Sequence record: OR062527
Source: Escherichia phage vB_EcoM_11B_SA_NWU
Strand: one strand, 5' to 3'
DNA: 64,000 bases
Translations under genes and position numbers: made by a program
In this document: positions 11,840 through 37,558 of the stretch, in pieces
Position numbering within the stretch: position 1 is the stretch's first letter
How the letters are laid out: each line of letters starts with the position of its first letter
Notes under the pieces: model-generated
Told to the model about the DNA's origin: nothing
Seen by the model: only the letters and a program-made list of their open reading frames with translations
The model's database searches: none

Positions 11840-11944
11840 TTAAGTCATTTATCGTTGGTTCATTATACACCGTTTCTTCATCAGTGTAAACCGGTTCTTC
11901 CGGCTCTGGCTCTACAGTTTCCCATCTAGCCGCCCACCAAGGTT

Positions 11945-12265
11945 TTATAGCGTAATCCATTCTCGTACTATCTGAGTTACTACACGTTCCCGGGGCTCGA
12001 CTAGTTCAACAGTCGGAACTGCATAATACCAGTCAGAATGGTAAGAACCCGAACGGCATTCATTTACGGAAACATGTACGTTATGTTTTGGACTAAAATA
12101 AACACACTGACGATATTGGCATTTACCATCTTGCACCCAGTCTTCTATTTCGACAGGTTTAAGATAATCGGAAAAATCGAAATCATAGTTTTCTGAAAAT
12201 GCATCATGGTCTTCAATGATTTCACTCAGAACTGCATCAACATCTAATTTATTTTCAATAGTCAT
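11945..12265 (-). CDS. hypothetical protein
   Basis: 106-aa acidic ORF. Confidence 0.45.
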   Translation of the reverse strand: MTIENKLDVDAVLSEIIEDHDAFSENYDFDFSDYLKPVEIEDWVQDGKCQYRQCVYFSPKHNVHVSVNECRSGSYHSDWYYAVPTVELVEPRERVVTQIVREWITL

Positions 12266-12925: not shown

Positions 12926-13204
12926 TTATTCCTTAATTCCTAGTACTTGTTTAAAAGTCTCGTCGTAATCAAGACTTTGGCCCGTTTGTTCTTTATGTTT
13001 GTATATAATATCACTTACTTCTGATAGCATATTTTTATATGAACGAGTTAAAGCAGATTTAAGCACGCTGTATCTATCAGGAAATTTACCATGTTCATTA
13101 TAATAAGCTATTGCTAATTCACGGACTGCCTTTTCAGCAGCCTCCATATATTCTTTACGCTTGGTCATTTTAATCCAAAATATTATTAGGCATTGGTTGA
13201 ACAC
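12926..13204 (-). CDS. hypothetical protein
   Basis: 92-aa ORF. Confidence 0.4.
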
Positions 13205-13559
13205 TCACAAGTTCTTTAAAGAACTCAGTAGAGTCAGGCAATTTAACCATTTCCGGAGCATGCTTACTGAATTTATGTTTACATTGACGGCATTTATATT
13301 CAAGCTCTGGTTTACGCCAGTTAATCAATTGAACTTGTTCAGTACCGCATTCAGGGCAATTAGGAACGTTTTTAGAAGCTCTTTCACGTCGTTCAACCAT
13401 AGCCATAATAGCATCCCATGCTGGAGGTTTAAAATCTAAATCGTCGCAGCCGTGAATCTTTCCACGCATTTCCAAATCGTCTTCTTCACCAGCCATAATA
13501 ATTTTAATTAGACTAGAATTACTTGAAGCTGCAATGTCTTCTAATAAACGCTTTTTCAT
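13170..13559 (-). CDS. zinc-ribbon protein
   Basis: 129 aa; CPECG...CRQCKHKF four-cysteine motif. Confidence 0.5.
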
Positions 13560-14485
13560 TTCAATACCTCAATAGCATTACGTAAACCATTTGCTTTTGC
13601 ATTAAGAGCTTTTAACAATTTGGTGTGTTCTGCAATTTGGGCTTCAACTTCAATCAAACGGGCATTGAGATATTCACGTTCTTCACTCAAATTATCAACC
13701 TTTTCTACTTTAGGCTCTTTTACAACTGTCTTATATGTATTAGGGTTCTTCAGTTTAATTAGAATGCGTGAACTGTATAACATTGAACCATTATCTTCGG
13801 TTTCGTCATACATTTCCACTACGTCCATAATTTTTAACATCATGCGGAGTTTATAAGACAACGAACGAATAGTTTTGTTGTGCTTATTAATTTCTTTAGC
13901 TGTCATGGTGCCAAGATTACGTGAGTAATAATAAGGAACCTGGATATTAATTAATACTGATGAACCACCTGGCTTGTGTGTTACTTCATCAGCAATAACC
14001 CAGTCCTTAACATGAACTGTATTTGTACGGTCATCGCCCGCGGTAAATAGTTTGCGAGCATGCTTAAAAAGCATATTCACTTGGTCATTGAATTGACAAG
14101 CAAATTTATCAGCAAATTTAGTTTCAGGAATGGTAGAAAACCAATCAGCCAAATGAGTCTTTTTAACATCATTAACAATAGTAAATTCAACAAAATCGGT
14201 TATAGATGTCTCAGATTTAATGAAGCTCGGCTTCATAAAGTTTTTAATGTTCTCATGAGCTACAGTAGAAGATAACATACGAGAACGTTTAAACCATTCA
14301 AGCAAATTGCCTAACGAATGAGAATAAGCGTTTTGAGTATCTTTACAGATATGATTTTCCTGACCAACATATTGAAGGAAATCACGAAGAATATTATTGA
14401 TTACTGCTCTGTGCCCGATCTGATAATTACGGTGTTTAGTAATAAGACTGTCAAAATAATCAATATAATGTTTACGAGTTTTCAT
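13556..14485 (-). CDS. hypothetical protein with C-terminal coiled coil (tandem array member 1)
   Basis: 309 aa; N-terminus MKTRKHY; C-terminal heptad-rich tail. Confidence 0.55.
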   Translation of the reverse strand: MKTRKHYIDYFDSLITKHRNYQIGHRAVINNILRDFLQYVGQENHICKDTQNAYSHSLGNLLEWFKRSRMLSSTVAHENIKNFMKPSFIKSETSITDFVEFTIVNDVKKTHLADWFSTIPETKFADKFACQFNDQVNMLFKHARKLFTAGDDRTNTVHVKDWVIADEVTHKPGGSSVLINIQVPYYYSRNLGTMTAKEINKHNKTIRSLSYKLRMMLKIMDVVEMYDETEDNGSMLYSSRILIKLKNPNTYKTVVKEPKVEKVDNLSEEREYLNARLIEVEAQIAEHTKLLKALNAKANGLRNAIEVLK

Positions 14486-14539
14486 GTTCTTCTCACTTGG
14501 TTAATGATTTATACTCCGAGCCATCCTTGGCTTTAAATT

Positions 14540-15568
14540 TTACTTAATTAACTGTAAAGCCTGTTCTAAACGATCAAGACGATTAACAGATTCTTCCCAA
14601 ATCCTTTTAGCCTGCTCATATTCTTTCTGCGCTTTATTAGAAATTTCTAGAACTTCTTTATAAGCTTTTTCTAATGCAATAACTTCTGGACGAATTTCTA
14701 CCGGTTCAGGTGAATCATCAAGATTATTCATTAGTTCCTCAAGGGTAGTTTCTTCTTTAGGAGTATTCACAATTTCCTCACATTTTTGTTGATAAATTTC
14801 TTTATCAGTAGGTGAATAAGCACATTTCACTTCACGAAGACTAATTACAATTTTATATCCTTCCCATCCGCATATATTCTTAAAAGGATATGTATGAATA
14901 TTTTCTACTGTTTCCATACAAAGTAATGCAGTCTCTAACTGACGAGTTATAGTGCTAGCAATTGAGAAAAATTTATTAATATTCTTTTGGTTAGCGTTTG
15001 GTGTAAAAAATCCATAATTCACAAAAATAGCTACTTTATTTTCATCAAGCTCATATTCTTTTACGATAATCATATCAGAAGCCAAAGGATGAATTTGACG
15101 ATAATCGCCATAACATAATTTAGAAGCTGATTTTAGAATTTGTCCTTTGAAAAGTCTGAAATTACTAATCCAACGGCGAGTAAAAATATTCTCAGGGTCT
15201 TCTTTATTAAGATGATAAGAATTAACATCACCGAACCAATTATATCCTACTACATCTTTGGTTCGTTTAATTTCTTTCCCAAAATTACCAAGAATATCCC
15301 GATTAACCAAATATGAAAGAAGACGAGACTCTTTAAAGGTTTTCTTGATAACATCTTTATCTACACGGCTAGAAATTTTACGAATTTCATGAATAAATTT
15401 AGCAGAAGAAACAATACTTGCATCAACACTATTGAGCCACTGATTGATAATAGAAAGAACGCTATTTTGGCCAAACATCGGTATAGCTTTATCATCAATA
15501 ACTCTATTGAATGATTTAATATATTCGTTGCGAGTCATATTAATCTCCTCAGTAGAAAGTAAGAACAT
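14540..15568 (-). CDS. hypothetical protein with C-terminal coiled coil (array member 2)
   Basis: 342 aa; internal MTRNEYIKSF may be the true start. Confidence 0.55.
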   Translation of the reverse strand: MFLLSTEEINMTRNEYIKSFNRVIDDKAIPMFGQNSVLSIINQWLNSVDASIVSSAKFIHEIRKISSRVDKDVIKKTFKESRLLSYLVNRDILGNFGKEIKRTKDVVGYNWFGDVNSYHLNKEDPENIFTRRWISNFRLFKGQILKSASKLCYGDYRQIHPLASDMIIVKEYELDENKVAIFVNYGFFTPNANQKNINKFFSIASTITRQLETALLCMETVENIHTYPFKNICGWEGYKIVISLREVKCAYSPTDKEIYQQKCEEIVNTPKEETTLEELMNNLDDSPEPVEIRPEVIALEKAYKEVLEISNKAQKEYEQAKRIWEESVNRLDRLEQALQLIK

Positions 15569-15595
15569 TATACCACATCCTTGTGGCGAAGTAAA

Positions 15596-16615
15596 CTAGT
15601 TTAGTGCATTTAGTGCGTTGTTCAATTTAGAACGTTGCTTCGTGAGATTTTTTACTTTTTCTTGAGCTTTTTCTAGCATCTTTTCAGCTTCTAACGCTTC
15701 ATTAGTTGCTTTAACGAGTTCATCATCTACTGCCTTGATAGACTTCTCAATCGCATCCGCGTGCCATTTTTCAACAGGTTTAAGACTAGGATTTTCAACA
15801 GGAAGAAAATTCACTTTATTAAATTTCCATGCATCTTTATTACCTGAACTATACATCCAAAATTTAGGATCGTTTGATGAGCAATTAGATAAATTTAAGT
15901 TATCTTGTACTTCCTGCTTTTTCTCTTGCGTGACTTCGTCTTTTCTCAAAAAATCATATTTAAATGAAACGATCATATCAAGTTCATATGTTGTTGTATG
16001 TTCCCAATTTCGCTCAAAACGAGGTAAAATCTTAGATTGAACAGCAGCAACAACATCCATATACTTAAATGCTTCTGTCAGCTGTGATTTAAGACATTCA
16101 CAAATTGAACGAGAATTTTTAGTATTAGGTTTAAAGCTAATTCGTGCAGTTCTATTATTTTCTTTAGATGGTCTTACTTCCATTTGAAGAGTATAACCAT
16201 CAAATTTCAGATTCTTTAAGTTAATATCAGAACCTTTTAATCGACTAGCAGTAGACAAAATTTGCTTTAATTGTTTACGGAATAGAGCAATAAATCTCCA
16301 TTCAAGACGATAATGATTTGGATTAAAAAATCCTGTTGATAAATCAACCTTACTCTGACCAACGCCTTGAACAAATAGAGGATTTTTATAATCAATAGTT
16401 TTACAGAAATCGGTGAGCTGCTCACGAGCAGTCATTTGTGTAATATATCCCGCTTTACTAAAATGACGTAACCATTCACTGCTATTCATATACTTAAAGT
16501 GAATGGAACTATTAACTCTATCAGGGTCTAAATTATTTTGGCACAAAAATGTCATAACATTACGGGTATAGCTGGCATTACGAACCATATCTTCAATTTG
16601 AGAACGAGTTTTCAT
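15596..16615 (-). CDS. hypothetical protein with C-terminal coiled coil (array member 3)
   Basis: 339 aa; N-terminus MKTRSQIEDM. Confidence 0.55.
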   Translation of the reverse strand: MKTRSQIEDMVRNASYTRNVMTFLCQNNLDPDRVNSSIHFKYMNSSEWLRHFSKAGYITQMTAREQLTDFCKTIDYKNPLFVQGVGQSKVDLSTGFFNPNHYRLEWRFIALFRKQLKQILSTASRLKGSDINLKNLKFDGYTLQMEVRPSKENNRTARISFKPNTKNSRSICECLKSQLTEAFKYMDVVAAVQSKILPRFERNWEHTTTYELDMIVSFKYDFLRKDEVTQEKKQEVQDNLNLSNCSSNDPKFWMYSSGNKDAWKFNKVNFLPVENPSLKPVEKWHADAIEKSIKAVDDELVKATNEALEAEKMLEKAQEKVKNLTKQRSKLNNALNALN

Positions 16616-16623
16616 GGTGTTCC

Positions 16624-17532
16624 TTAAGATTTAAGTAAATCAACAATTTTAATTAATTTTTCACGCTCAGATTTAGCTTTACTACTCAATCCAGATAGTC
16701 TGAAAATTTCATCGTCATACTGTTGAATAGAAATATTCAGCTCTTCAATTTGCTTATTAAAATAATCAATTTGCTCAGAATGTTTTTCATTACTGCGAAC
16801 TGGTACAGGTTTTGTAGGCAATTTAGTTAAACTGGATTCATCCGGGCGATAAATTAAAATACAACTTGAACCAATCGGGCATTTAGCACCAGACACATAT
16901 TCTAATGTTCCGGCTTCTTTTAAAACTTCAAAAGCTAAACAGAGATGATGCCCCATATTAACATAATCTGTAGAGCGAGCTCTGACGTAATAATCATCTC
17001 CGCGAATACTAAATTTAAAGCATTTAAGGTCTTCTGTATTATTGGTCTTAAAAATCATTTGTTTATCTAGACCTTTAGCTAATCGAGCGCCTAATGCTAA
17101 TAATCGTCGTTGATTTTCCCACAAATCTGCGATCATTTGGTCAAATGATAATTTCGGCATTAGTCGACCGTAAAGATCATAGCCTTTATTATAATTGCGA
17201 AGAATTTCACTCGCGTTAATACGAGACAACGCTCCAATTTTATTAAGGGCTTTCATGATGCGATTAGATAAACCCATTCCAGACCCGTTTGTTCGTTGTA
17301 AATGTTTATCTAATCCAAACCCAATATCAACTTTAAATTTATCTAAAATTTCAGCATGAACATCTCTGTCAATAACATTCAAATCCAAAGTTGGGTTAAA
17401 TCTATGAAAAAATTTATCTGGCTCTCCACGACGAAGTACAGTCCATTCATTCAATTTTTTATTAACTAAAGATTTAATTACTGCATTGACATTATTAATT
17501 ACTACTGACATATTTTCCTCACTCAATTTCAA
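16624..17532 (-). CDS. hypothetical protein with C-terminal coiled coil (array member 4)
   Basis: 302 aa. Confidence 0.55.
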   Translation of the reverse strand: MKLSEENMSVVINNVNAVIKSLVNKKLNEWTVLRRGEPDKFFHRFNPTLDLNVIDRDVHAEILDKFKVDIGFGLDKHLQRTNGSGMGLSNRIMKALNKIGALSRINASEILRNYNKGYDLYGRLMPKLSFDQMIADLWENQRRLLALGARLAKGLDKQMIFKTNNTEDLKCFKFSIRGDDYYVRARSTDYVNMGHHLCLAFEVLKEAGTLEYVSGAKCPIGSSCILIYRPDESSLTKLPTKPVPVRSNEKHSEQIDYFNKQIEELNISIQQYDDEIFRLSGLSSKAKSEREKLIKIVDLLKS

Positions 17533-17981: not shown

Positions 17982-18509
17982 TTATGCGAGTACCGTCTTT
18001 AACCGTTCTTCAAACTTCCGAAGAGTATTCTGGCGTTCAGCTCTTTGCTTTTTGTAAGTTTCAATACGCTCTGAAATGAGAGTGTATCGTTCATTTACTG
18101 ATTCTTTCATAAAATCAGGAATTTCACGAGAAGCTTTAATCTCGTCAAATTTATCAATAACAGCTTGCTCTTCAGCAATTAAGTTATCATACATTAAAAT
18201 ATCTTTCTTGATGAACTCAATATCTTCTTGAGTTACACGAGATAATTTAGATGCTTTATCCTTTTTGTACTGTTCGTTAGTATCACGAGACCAGTGTAAT
18301 GTACGATTTTTATTCGTATTCTTGTAAATTTCTACAATACCAATCTCATCAATAATAACGATCCAATTCCAGCGAGATTTGTAAATTTGTCCTCCATCAA
18401 CAGTGATTTCACCTCCGATTGAGATGTCATTAAAGAACTTGCTTTGTGCTTCAGATTTAAATTTACCATCATTGTAATTTACCAAGTTGAAAATATCTTT
18501 AGCATTCAT
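17982..18509 (-). CDS. hypothetical protein
   Basis: Start moved to internal Met (MNAKDIFNLV) because the tracked N-terminus reads through the promoter/leader repeat. Confidence 0.5.
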   Translation of the reverse strand: MNAKDIFNLVNYNDGKFKSEAQSKFFNDISIGGEITVDGGQIYKSRWNWIVIIDEIGIVEIYKNTNKNRTLHWSRDTNEQYKKDKASKLSRVTQEDIEFIKKDILMYDNLIAEEQAVIDKFDEIKASREIPDFMKESVNERYTLISERIETYKKQRAERQNTLRKFEERLKTVLA

Positions 18510-28792: not shown

Positions 28793-28820
28793 GTTGTTCT
28801 CCTCTTAACTGATAGAAAAA

Positions 28821-28849
28821 TTATACCACAGTCAAGAGGAAAAGTAAAC
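28821..28849 (-). promoter_or_regulatory. Early promoter upstream of regB
   Basis: Minus strand GTTTAC...TTGACT...TGGTATAAT then GAGGAG RBS and ATG. Confidence 0.5.
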
Positions 28850-36880: not shown

Positions 36881-37531
36881 TTAAAATTTCATTTTTCGAC
36901 CTTTAAACCATCCTTCTGGAATTGGGTCAGTTTTCTTAATACGTTTAGAAACTTTTTCATCTAATGAATGAATCCACATGGTTCCAAACTGAGAATTGTA
37001 TTTTCCAGAAGAATTAATCTTGGCTGAATCAGATATTTTCTTTTTCGTTTCTTTGTTATGTAGTTTACCTAAAAATCCAAAAGTTGGTTTTCTTATTCCA
37101 TTTTCCCATTGAATTTTCATAGATTCAGAAACTTTTTGCGATACCTTCGAATAGTCTCTTCTTAAGTTAGATTCTCTTACTCCAGATGAACAAATTGATG
37201 CAAAATTTGGACTATTACAAATATGATCCCAACCGCCTTCGCCACCAATCTTAAGATTATAAACGTTGCCTTTTAAAAATTCTTCTGTTACAATTTCAAG
37301 CTCTTTTGCGTACATTTCTTTAGCAGAAGAAAATTCATACAAAATTTCTTTTGTGAAATTATTTATTCCATACTTAGCAATTGCTCTTTTTATTCTTTTA
37401 CCAGAACCCATATAACCATCATTTATATTAGATGTTTTATGAGCTCCAACATAAACAGTTCCATTGATTAAATTAGTTATTTTATAAATCAGATAATGCA
37501 TATCTCCTCCATAGTTGAGATTATTATACAT
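36881..37531 (-). CDS. segB: GIY-YIG homing endonuclease (SegB-like)
   Basis: 216 aa; N-terminal YLIYKITNLINGTVYVGAHKT; located inside the tRNA cluster. Confidence 0.75.
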   Translation of the reverse strand: MYNNLNYGGDMHYLIYKITNLINGTVYVGAHKTSNINDGYMGSGKRIKRAIAKYGINNFTKEILYEFSSAKEMYAKELEIVTEEFLKGNVYNLKIGGEGGWDHICNSPNFASICSSGVRESNLRRDYSKVSQKVSESMKIQWENGIRKPTFGFLGKLHNKETKKKISDSAKINSSGKYNSQFGTMWIHSLDEKVSKRIKKTDPIPEGWFKGRKMKF

Positions 37532-37558
37532 TATTCCATTCCAATTGTAAACAAAAAA

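Follow-up and report, generated by a model that had tools for sequence, protein, structure and literature searches.

The nrdC.3 to nrdC.6 genes of a Tequatrovirus as a candidate family of old, strongly diverged paralogues with a link to anti-defence

In the 64,000-nucleotide (nt) stretch of the genome of Escherichia phage vB_EcoM_11B_SA_NWU analysed here (record OR062527; hereafter the window), positions 13556 to 17532 are occupied by four consecutive minus-strand genes, the orthologues of phage T4 nrdC.3, nrdC.4, nrdC.5 and nrdC.6. Profile comparisons, shared motifs and predicted structures support the view that the four are old, strongly diverged paralogues of one ancestral gene, and one of them, the nrdC.5 copy, is the orthologue of a T4 gene whose expression restores phage growth on cells carrying the defence protein Dsr1. 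Neither the genes themselves nor this one function nor the nature of the region is new; the modest additions are the homology of all four, the spread of the family among T4-like phages and the design of a head joined to a conserved tail.

Results

Identity of the genes

The source genome is that of a T4-like phage (Tequatrovirus), and the 5-kb stretch was 97–99% identical to many Tequatrovirus genomes. Four open reading frames (ORFs) were present at 13556-14485, 14540-15568, 15596-16615 and 16624-17532, with longest-ORF lengths of 309, 342, 339 and 302 amino acids (aa; 302 aa from TTG), and were identified as nrdC.3 to nrdC.6 by comparison with the T4 reference record and an annotated relative and by synteny, the array being flanked by nrdC (thioredoxin) and nrdC.7. 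After two start codons were moved (see below), the sizes became 309, 332, 339 and 295 aa, where the initial annotation, a model's reading of the letters alone, had given 300–340 aa. Three of the proteins do begin MKTR or MTRN (MKTRKHY, MTRNEY and MKTRSQI), as it had observed. The genes, with the most likely starts of the second and fourth and with the expectation value (E) of their best-supported family, are as follows:

13556..14485, minus strand: paralogue 1, nrdC.3 orthologue, 309 aa; phrog_1435, E=1.6e-115; syntenic with T4 nrdC.3
14540..15538, minus strand: paralogue 2, nrdC.4 orthologue, 332 aa; phrog_1435, E=2.5e-167; Shine-Dalgarno GAGGAG; AlphaFold2 model
15596..16615, minus strand: paralogue 3, nrdC.5 orthologue, 339 aa; Pfam DUF7235, E=1e-124
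16624..17511, minus strand: paralogue 4, nrdC.6 orthologue, 295 aa; phrog_2257, E=2.4e-152; Shine-Dalgarno GAGGAA; AlphaFold2 model

The nrdC.5 copy was identical to T4 NrdC.5 at 310 of 340 residues (91%), lies in the same position between nrdC.4 and nrdC.6, and matched Pfam DUF7235 (PF23882) over its full length (416 bits against a gathering cut-off of 30). The DUF7235 model found no match in the nrdC.3, nrdC.4 and nrdC.6 proteins in the Pfam scan. Full-length profile matches placed the nrdC.3 and nrdC.4 proteins in the same family, phrog_1435, and the nrdC.6 protein likewise in phrog_2257; homologues of nrdC.4 carry PF26897, and all 105 homologues of nrdC.6 carry PF26899. Alleles of nrdC.3 are deeply diverged, falling into identity classes of about 99, 75 and 60%, and the copy in the window is only 60% identical to the T4 allele. 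The neighbouring nrdC.2 (13170-13559, minus strand) is also highly variable in Tequatrovirus (minimum 58% identity, dN/dS, the ratio of non-synonymous to synonymous substitution rates, of 0.25, and lengths of 98–129 aa) and in this variability resembles the adjoining nrdC.3.

Scans of the four proteins against Pfam, NCBIfam and PADLOC returned only DUF7235 for nrdC.5, other matches being sub-threshold and non-recurring. None of the four proteins matched a Pfam domain of known function or a solved structure, and their profile scans pointed to no family of enzymes or DNA-binding proteins; nothing meaningful was found in the PDB when it was searched by sequence with the profiles of nrdC.4 and nrdC.6 and with nrdC.5 itself. 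A weak match of nrdC.3 to the tyrosine-recombinase N-terminal SAM-like domain was rejected, being absent in other members and lacking structural support. In many GenBank records 8–11 consecutive nrdC.x genes bear the label ‘thioredoxin’, a description that fits only nrdC itself; the label is an annotation artefact inherited from the gene names and finds no support in the sequences.

Evidence for common ancestry

By pairwise BLASTP of the six possible pairs, only nrdC.3 and nrdC.4 were significantly similar (E=1e-5, 27% over 160 aa), all other pairs giving E≥0.09, and the nrdC.3, nrdC.4 and nrdC.6 proteins were at most about 20% identical to NrdC.5, in keeping with the low pairwise similarity first noticed by eye. 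PHROGs likewise lets nrdC.3 and nrdC.4 share phrog_1435, and Pfam and PHROGs keep nrdC.5 and nrdC.6 in separate families. Family alignments, built from database homologues and 25 fetched loci, revealed more distant links: by hhalign nrdC.3 matched nrdC.4 (98%, E=2.7e-13, 214 columns) and nrdC.4 matched nrdC.5 (89%, E=2.2e-6, 240 columns), and a merged nrdC.3/4/5 profile matched nrdC.6 both locally (E=4e-4, 34%, 117 columns) and globally (79%, E=2e-6). The matches fall in the globular part of the proteins, outside the tail. Control profiles of five neighbouring families (nrdC.2, nrdC.7, nrdC.8, nrdC.9 and nrdC.10) gave probabilities ≤1.1% and E≥0.05. All five, including nrdC.8 with its helical tail and anti-defence function, were rejected as members of the family at that probability.

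When the four proteins were aligned together with seven divergent members, two motifs proved common to all four at equivalent positions, FKxSRxLSxxxAxxxLxNF (motif 1) and FxxxxxxILxxAxRLxxGD (motif 2). The N-terminal M(K)TR and a C-terminal ending KLxxA(I/L)xxLK are also shared features of the four-protein alignment, and most of these four features were seen in the members from Klebsiella, Acinetobacter and Serratia phages as well. Taken as single sequences against single families, the distant phage members gave weak matches. An exhaustive phmmer search with nrdC.5 against 1.84 billion representatives returned only 12 matches and no bridge to nrdC.6; the nrdC.5 sub-family is therefore narrow.

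AlphaFold2 models were obtained for nrdC.4 and nrdC.6 (mean predicted local distance difference test, pLDDT, 81 and 78.5, respectively), each from its own family alignment only. The order of elements was the same in both: about five N-terminal helices, a helix-helix-short helix unit, a β-hairpin, a long helix, a second β-hairpin, a disordered linker and a C-terminal helix (two in nrdC.6), with an additional three-stranded element in the nrdC.4 model of which only remnants appear in the nrdC.6 model. When the two were compared in the register of the sequence-profile alignment, which uses no structural information, the secondary-structure states agreed at 74% of positions against 43 ± 4% in shifted controls. 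Foldseek searches of BFVD found six targets common to both models, with full-length alignments (E 1e-8 to 4e-4, template modelling score 0.35–0.50), all of them uncharacterised 300–370-aa proteins of distant T4-like phages (IME523, PM2, fHyAci03, Acj9, fHe-Yen9-01 and Cronus). One fold common to all four proteins is thus indicated by the profiles together with the modelled pair, and each protein would begin with a helical region, followed by a small α/β core, a disordered linker and, at the C terminus, a conserved helix. The α/β core bears a faint resemblance to phage tail-terminator and tail-completion proteins; the RNA polymerase alpha N-terminal (Rpb11-like) fold is likewise among the closest known ones.

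The old duplication and diversification proposed by the initial annotation is accordingly supported by the profile alignments, the merged profile, the motifs, the register of the models and the shared BFVD targets; neither structural dissimilarity among the proteins nor matches of each to an unrelated known protein were encountered.

C-terminal tails

The C-terminal tails of the four proteins are encoded as follows:

13559..13693, minus strand: nrdC.3 tail, last 45 aa; heptad score above the shuffle null
14543..14686, minus strand: nrdC.4 tail, 48-residue helix ending ...NRLDRLEQALQLIK; AlphaFold2 helix 285-332
15599..15763, minus strand: nrdC.5 tail, about 55 aa without Gly or Pro, ending ...KQRSKLNNALNALN; heptad score above the null, residues 283-339
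16627..16788, minus strand: nrdC.6 tail, helices 242-271 and 277-294, ending ...EREKLIKIVDLLKS; AlphaFold2 model

The initial annotation had described each protein as ending in a coiled coil. A long C-terminal amphipathic helix was confirmed by prediction where modelled: in nrdC.4 a single helix (285-332) follows a disordered segment (261-284), in nrdC.6 two helices (242-271 and 277-294) follow a disordered linker, and both models show the tail as long, helical and exposed. On a crude heptad score of our own, the tails of nrdC.3, nrdC.5 and nrdC.6 beat 95% of shuffles. A coiled coil in the sense of oligomerisation through the tail is inferred.

The tail is clearly better conserved than the globular part in the alignments. 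Between genera, tail and core identities were 60–64% and 37–53% for nrdC.4 and 53–73% and 36–53% for nrdC.6, and between the nrdC.3 copy in the window and the T4-type allele the tail was 84% and the core 63% identical. Tail-only profiles of nrdC.3 and nrdC.5 aligned end to end and in register (score 24, column shuffles giving 8.9 ± 1.9), most other pairs being marginal and nrdC.4 against nrdC.6 at chance (13 of 60 shuffles).

Distribution and evolution of the array

The array was found at the same place in four genera of the Tevenvirinae, in 2–4 copies. The order nrdC.6-nrdC.5-nrdC.4-(nrdC.3) is preserved in Tequatrovirus and, without nrdC.3, in Gaprivervirus and Dhakavirus, and Mosigvirus has nrdC.6-(nrdC.5)-nrdC.3, that is, 2–3 copies. 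More distant T4-like phages have one or two members, usually beside nrdC, with single copies in Klebsiella, Acinetobacter and Serratia phages. A tandem pair, p120 and p121 (330 and 304 aa; L031:35452-36444 and L031:36558-37472), lies between nrdC and nrdC.10 in Acinetobacter phage Acj61; the nrdC.4 model matched p120 and the nrdC.6 model p121, two proteins whose accessions are consecutive. Their relative order is that of T4, which suggests that this duplication is older than the split of the two phage subfamilies.

The proteins evolve faster than those of their neighbours: among 13 Tequatrovirus loci, dN/dS was 0.30, 0.23, 0.20 and 0.11 for the four genes and 0.01–0.07 for nrdC, nrdC.1, nrdC.8, nrdC.9 and nrdC.10 in the same comparison. 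Natural copies are also disrupted. In one IMG/VR genome (L016) nrdC.4 is split into ORFs of 193 and 158 aa, and the BFVD entries of nrdC.4 for phages T2 (A0A2Z5WKJ2) and G8 (A0A482N302) are fragments of only 155–158 aa; together these suggest repeated inactivation of nrdC.4. NrdC.6 of the T4 reference (L002:10067-10894) has 275 aa and a different end (..KQIEELIFLFNNMMMKFSDYLD), and the gene reads as a one-base frameshift of the sequence of other phages by which the conserved C-terminal helix would be lost. Rearranged forms were found in three further entries. P0105 fuses the middle of nrdC.5 with the latter half of nrdC.3 through an FNxxVN microhomology, nrdC.4 being deleted; in P0106 (phage Sf25), an nrdC.6, 83 aa are duplicated internally; and P0216 (173 aa, from a metagenome) has an nrdC.5 tail behind an unrelated head of 120 aa. 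No match to this head was found in our phage collection, and the entry may be an assembly chimera, so that modular swapping is at most a possibility.

Neighbouring anti-defence genes

Three genes close to the array are orthologues of published anti-defence genes:

11945-12265, minus strand: gp49.2, 94% identical to the T4 orthologue; T6 Gp49.2 is a published OLD inhibitor
12926-13168, minus strand: nrdC.1, orthologue of T4 NrdC.1, a published Septu inhibitor
17982-18509, minus strand: nrdC.8, 174 of 175 residues matching bas37_0203, a published Druantia III inhibitor

Bas37 is phage KarlGJung, and bas37_0203 is its nrdC.8 orthologue. Because of these three neighbours, the whole stretch from pin to nrdC.8 looks like an anti-defence island.

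Start codons and a promoter-like site

For nrdC.4, a strong Shine-Dalgarno sequence, GAGGAG, stands 6 nt ahead of ATG 15538 (MTRNEY, 332 aa). A promoter-like site of early type lies just upstream of the gene, and its -10 element overlaps the upstream ATG (15568) of the longest ORF. The most likely start is consequently ATG 15538, given the GAGGAG there and a promoter-like site which would initiate transcription downstream of ATG 15568. For nrdC.6, GAGGAA precedes ATG 17511 (MSVV, 295 aa), the start also annotated in relatives, and this codon, judged from the sequence, is most likely used rather than TTG 17532.

The site upstream of nrdC.4, a consensus match only, is:

15567..15596, minus strand: early-type promoter-like site, GTTTACT-17-(TG)GTATAAT

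The window has four exact copies of the pattern GTTTAC-N16-19-TATAAT, each of them on the minus strand, where 0.16 would be expected:

11862-11891, minus strand: exact pattern match
15567-15596, minus strand: exact pattern match, the site upstream of nrdC.4
28820-28849, minus strand: exact pattern match
37523-37552, minus strand: exact pattern match

The four sites are probable T4 early promoters, and at least nrdC.4 would then be served by an early-type promoter of its own, as predicted from the consensus.

Discussion

We propose, with a probability of about 65%, that nrdC.3 to nrdC.6 form a paralogous family of early accessory proteins, dispensable in the laboratory, whose variable heads bind different host targets and whose conserved tail serves a shared function. 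The fast-diverging globular part of each paralogue would bind a different host target, most plausibly the sensor or the effector of a defence system, and the tail would supply the common function, either self-association for avidity or the binding of a common partner. The literature supports a role of the family in host interaction, which the initial annotation had raised by likening the pattern to that of gene families under such pressure. In one study, a T4 clone bearing compensatory deletions failed to grow on E. coli ECOR17 or on MG1655 carrying the ECOR17 dsr1 gene (eLife 2022, PMC9391042), and expression of T4 nrdC.5 in trans restored growth on those Dsr1 cells (Srikant, Guegler and Laub, PMC9391042). 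Dsr1 is a SIR2 NADase that depletes nicotinamide adenine dinucleotide (NAD) and whose sensor recognises the phage major capsid protein (PMC13581612), and the nrdC.1-6 block can be deleted in the laboratory (PMC9825161). As the orthologue of T4 NrdC.5, the nrdC.5 copy of the window would let the phage grow on Dsr1-bearing cells, a role taken by orthology from the literature on the T4 protein.

T4 NrdC.5 is the closest relative with a function: the copy in the window resembles it in identity (91%), position and its full-length DUF7235 match, and the predicted fold and architecture of T4 NrdC.5 would be common to the nrdC.3, nrdC.4 and nrdC.6 proteins, whereas these three show no DUF7235 match and at most about 20% identity. 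The closest mechanistic precedent for what NrdC.5 may do to Dsr1, by analogy only, is DSAD1, a phage inhibitor of DSR2 which is reported to bind the sensor region in competition with the trigger, the tail tube protein (PMC10973363, PMC11087589). Here too a defence-associated sirtuin is neutralised by a phage protein, although DSAD1 comes from another phage lineage and has another defence protein as its target. Anti-defence clusters of T-even phages, such as the known dmd-tifA-adfA cluster (PMC9391042), provide a further parallel. Those represented here by gp49.2, nrdC.1 and nrdC.8 share with the array the neighbourhood, the early non-essential class and the pattern of presence, absence and allelic variation; however, gp49.2, nrdC.1, nrdC.8 and dmd-tifA-adfA are short, mutually unrelated singletons, whereas the array is a paralogous family.

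Several observations weigh against the family and the roles proposed for it. The weakest link at the sequence level is nrdC.6, which had no significant hhalign match to any single other family (E 0.006–0.16) and whose place in the family depends on the merged profile together with the motifs and the structure predictions. The nrdC.4 tail did not exceed 95% of shuffles on the crude heptad score, and many polar and apolar positions in the tail of the nrdC.4 family are invariant, of which the polar ones suit a specific interaction interface no less well than a coiled coil. The dN/dS ratios of the 13 Tequatrovirus loci are raised and exceed 1 in none of the genes, and positive selection is therefore not established. 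The effect of NrdC.5 on Dsr1 is possibly indirect. The literature searched offered no function for nrdC.3, nrdC.4 or nrdC.6, nor did the name DUF7235 appear in it, and the text on the HIDEN-SEQ screen names nrdC.1 and bas37_0203 in this region, not bas37_0198-0201.

If the effect of NrdC.5 is indirect, the genes might instead act in phage development, for example in host take-over, transcription or the metabolism of DNA or nucleotides, and the rescue from Dsr1 would follow, for instance, from the trigger being kept hidden or from NAD being preserved. The location among the nucleotide-metabolism genes nrdC, nrdD and nrdG, the conservation of the family over many genera of Straboviridae and dN/dS ratios below 1 would all suit such a role; the published experiment on NrdC.5 demonstrates rescue and not mechanism (PMC9391042), and the triggering of Dsr1 by the major capsid protein (PMC13581612) makes interference with the trigger conceivable. 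We nevertheless regard a developmental role as unlikely, given that the nrdC.1-6 block is dispensable in laboratory hosts (PMC9825161), that natural copies have been lost, split or frameshifted, including those of T2 and the T4 reference, that the copy number varies from 1 to 4, that three neighbours are dedicated anti-defence genes and that none of the proteins matched an enzyme or DNA-binding family.

It is very unlikely that the four proteins are subunits of a single machine, one hetero-oligomer held together by related C-terminal helices. The tails are related and end alike, those of nrdC.3 and nrdC.5 aligning end to end 8 standard deviations above shuffles, they are the most conserved part of the proteins, and the genes are adjacent, with only 8 nt between nrdC.6 and nrdC.5. 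Yet several genera have one copy, some Mosigvirus two and Gaprivervirus three; plasmid-borne NrdC.5 alone rescues a phage with large deletions (PMC9391042); NrdC.6 of the T4 reference is without the tail, and nrdC.4 is fragmentary in T2 (BFVD); and the similarity of the nrdC.4 and nrdC.6 tails is at chance. Scarcely tenable, and largely refuted, is the idea that four unrelated proteins share a size and a generic helical tail, the array being a coincidence of orphan genes. It could appeal to the failure of BLASTP for five of the six pairs, to the three separate families assigned by Pfam and PHROGs and to the often spurious similarity among coiled-coil sequences, but the profile matches lie in the globular part and not in the tail, two motifs stand at equivalent positions, the secondary-structure elements follow the same order in register, the two models have full-length BFVD matches in common, and the neighbouring control families gave nothing.

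A bolder version of the proposed host-interaction family, which we hold to be quite unlikely, would make the superfamily a modular anti-immunity platform throughout the T4-like phages: the conserved C-terminal helix would assemble or dock, the rapidly diversifying head, with its core faintly like that of tail-terminator and tail-completion proteins, would serve as a decoy for, or block, host sensors of conserved virion proteins (Dsr1, with its recognition of the capsid protein, being such a sensor), and each paralogue would address a different sensor. If this were true, T4 itself would have three new anti-defence proteins, and more could be sought by a rule that holds for the whole family.

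About half of the genes of T4, the best-studied of all phages, still lack an assigned function. The gain from the present analysis is incremental: as probable diverged copies of an anti-Dsr1 gene amid three anti-defence genes, nrdC.3, nrdC.4 and nrdC.6 become testable candidates for anti-defence roles of their own. The family spans T4-like phages of Klebsiella, Acinetobacter, Serratia, Enterobacter and Pectobacterium, and any function found for one of its members would carry over widely.

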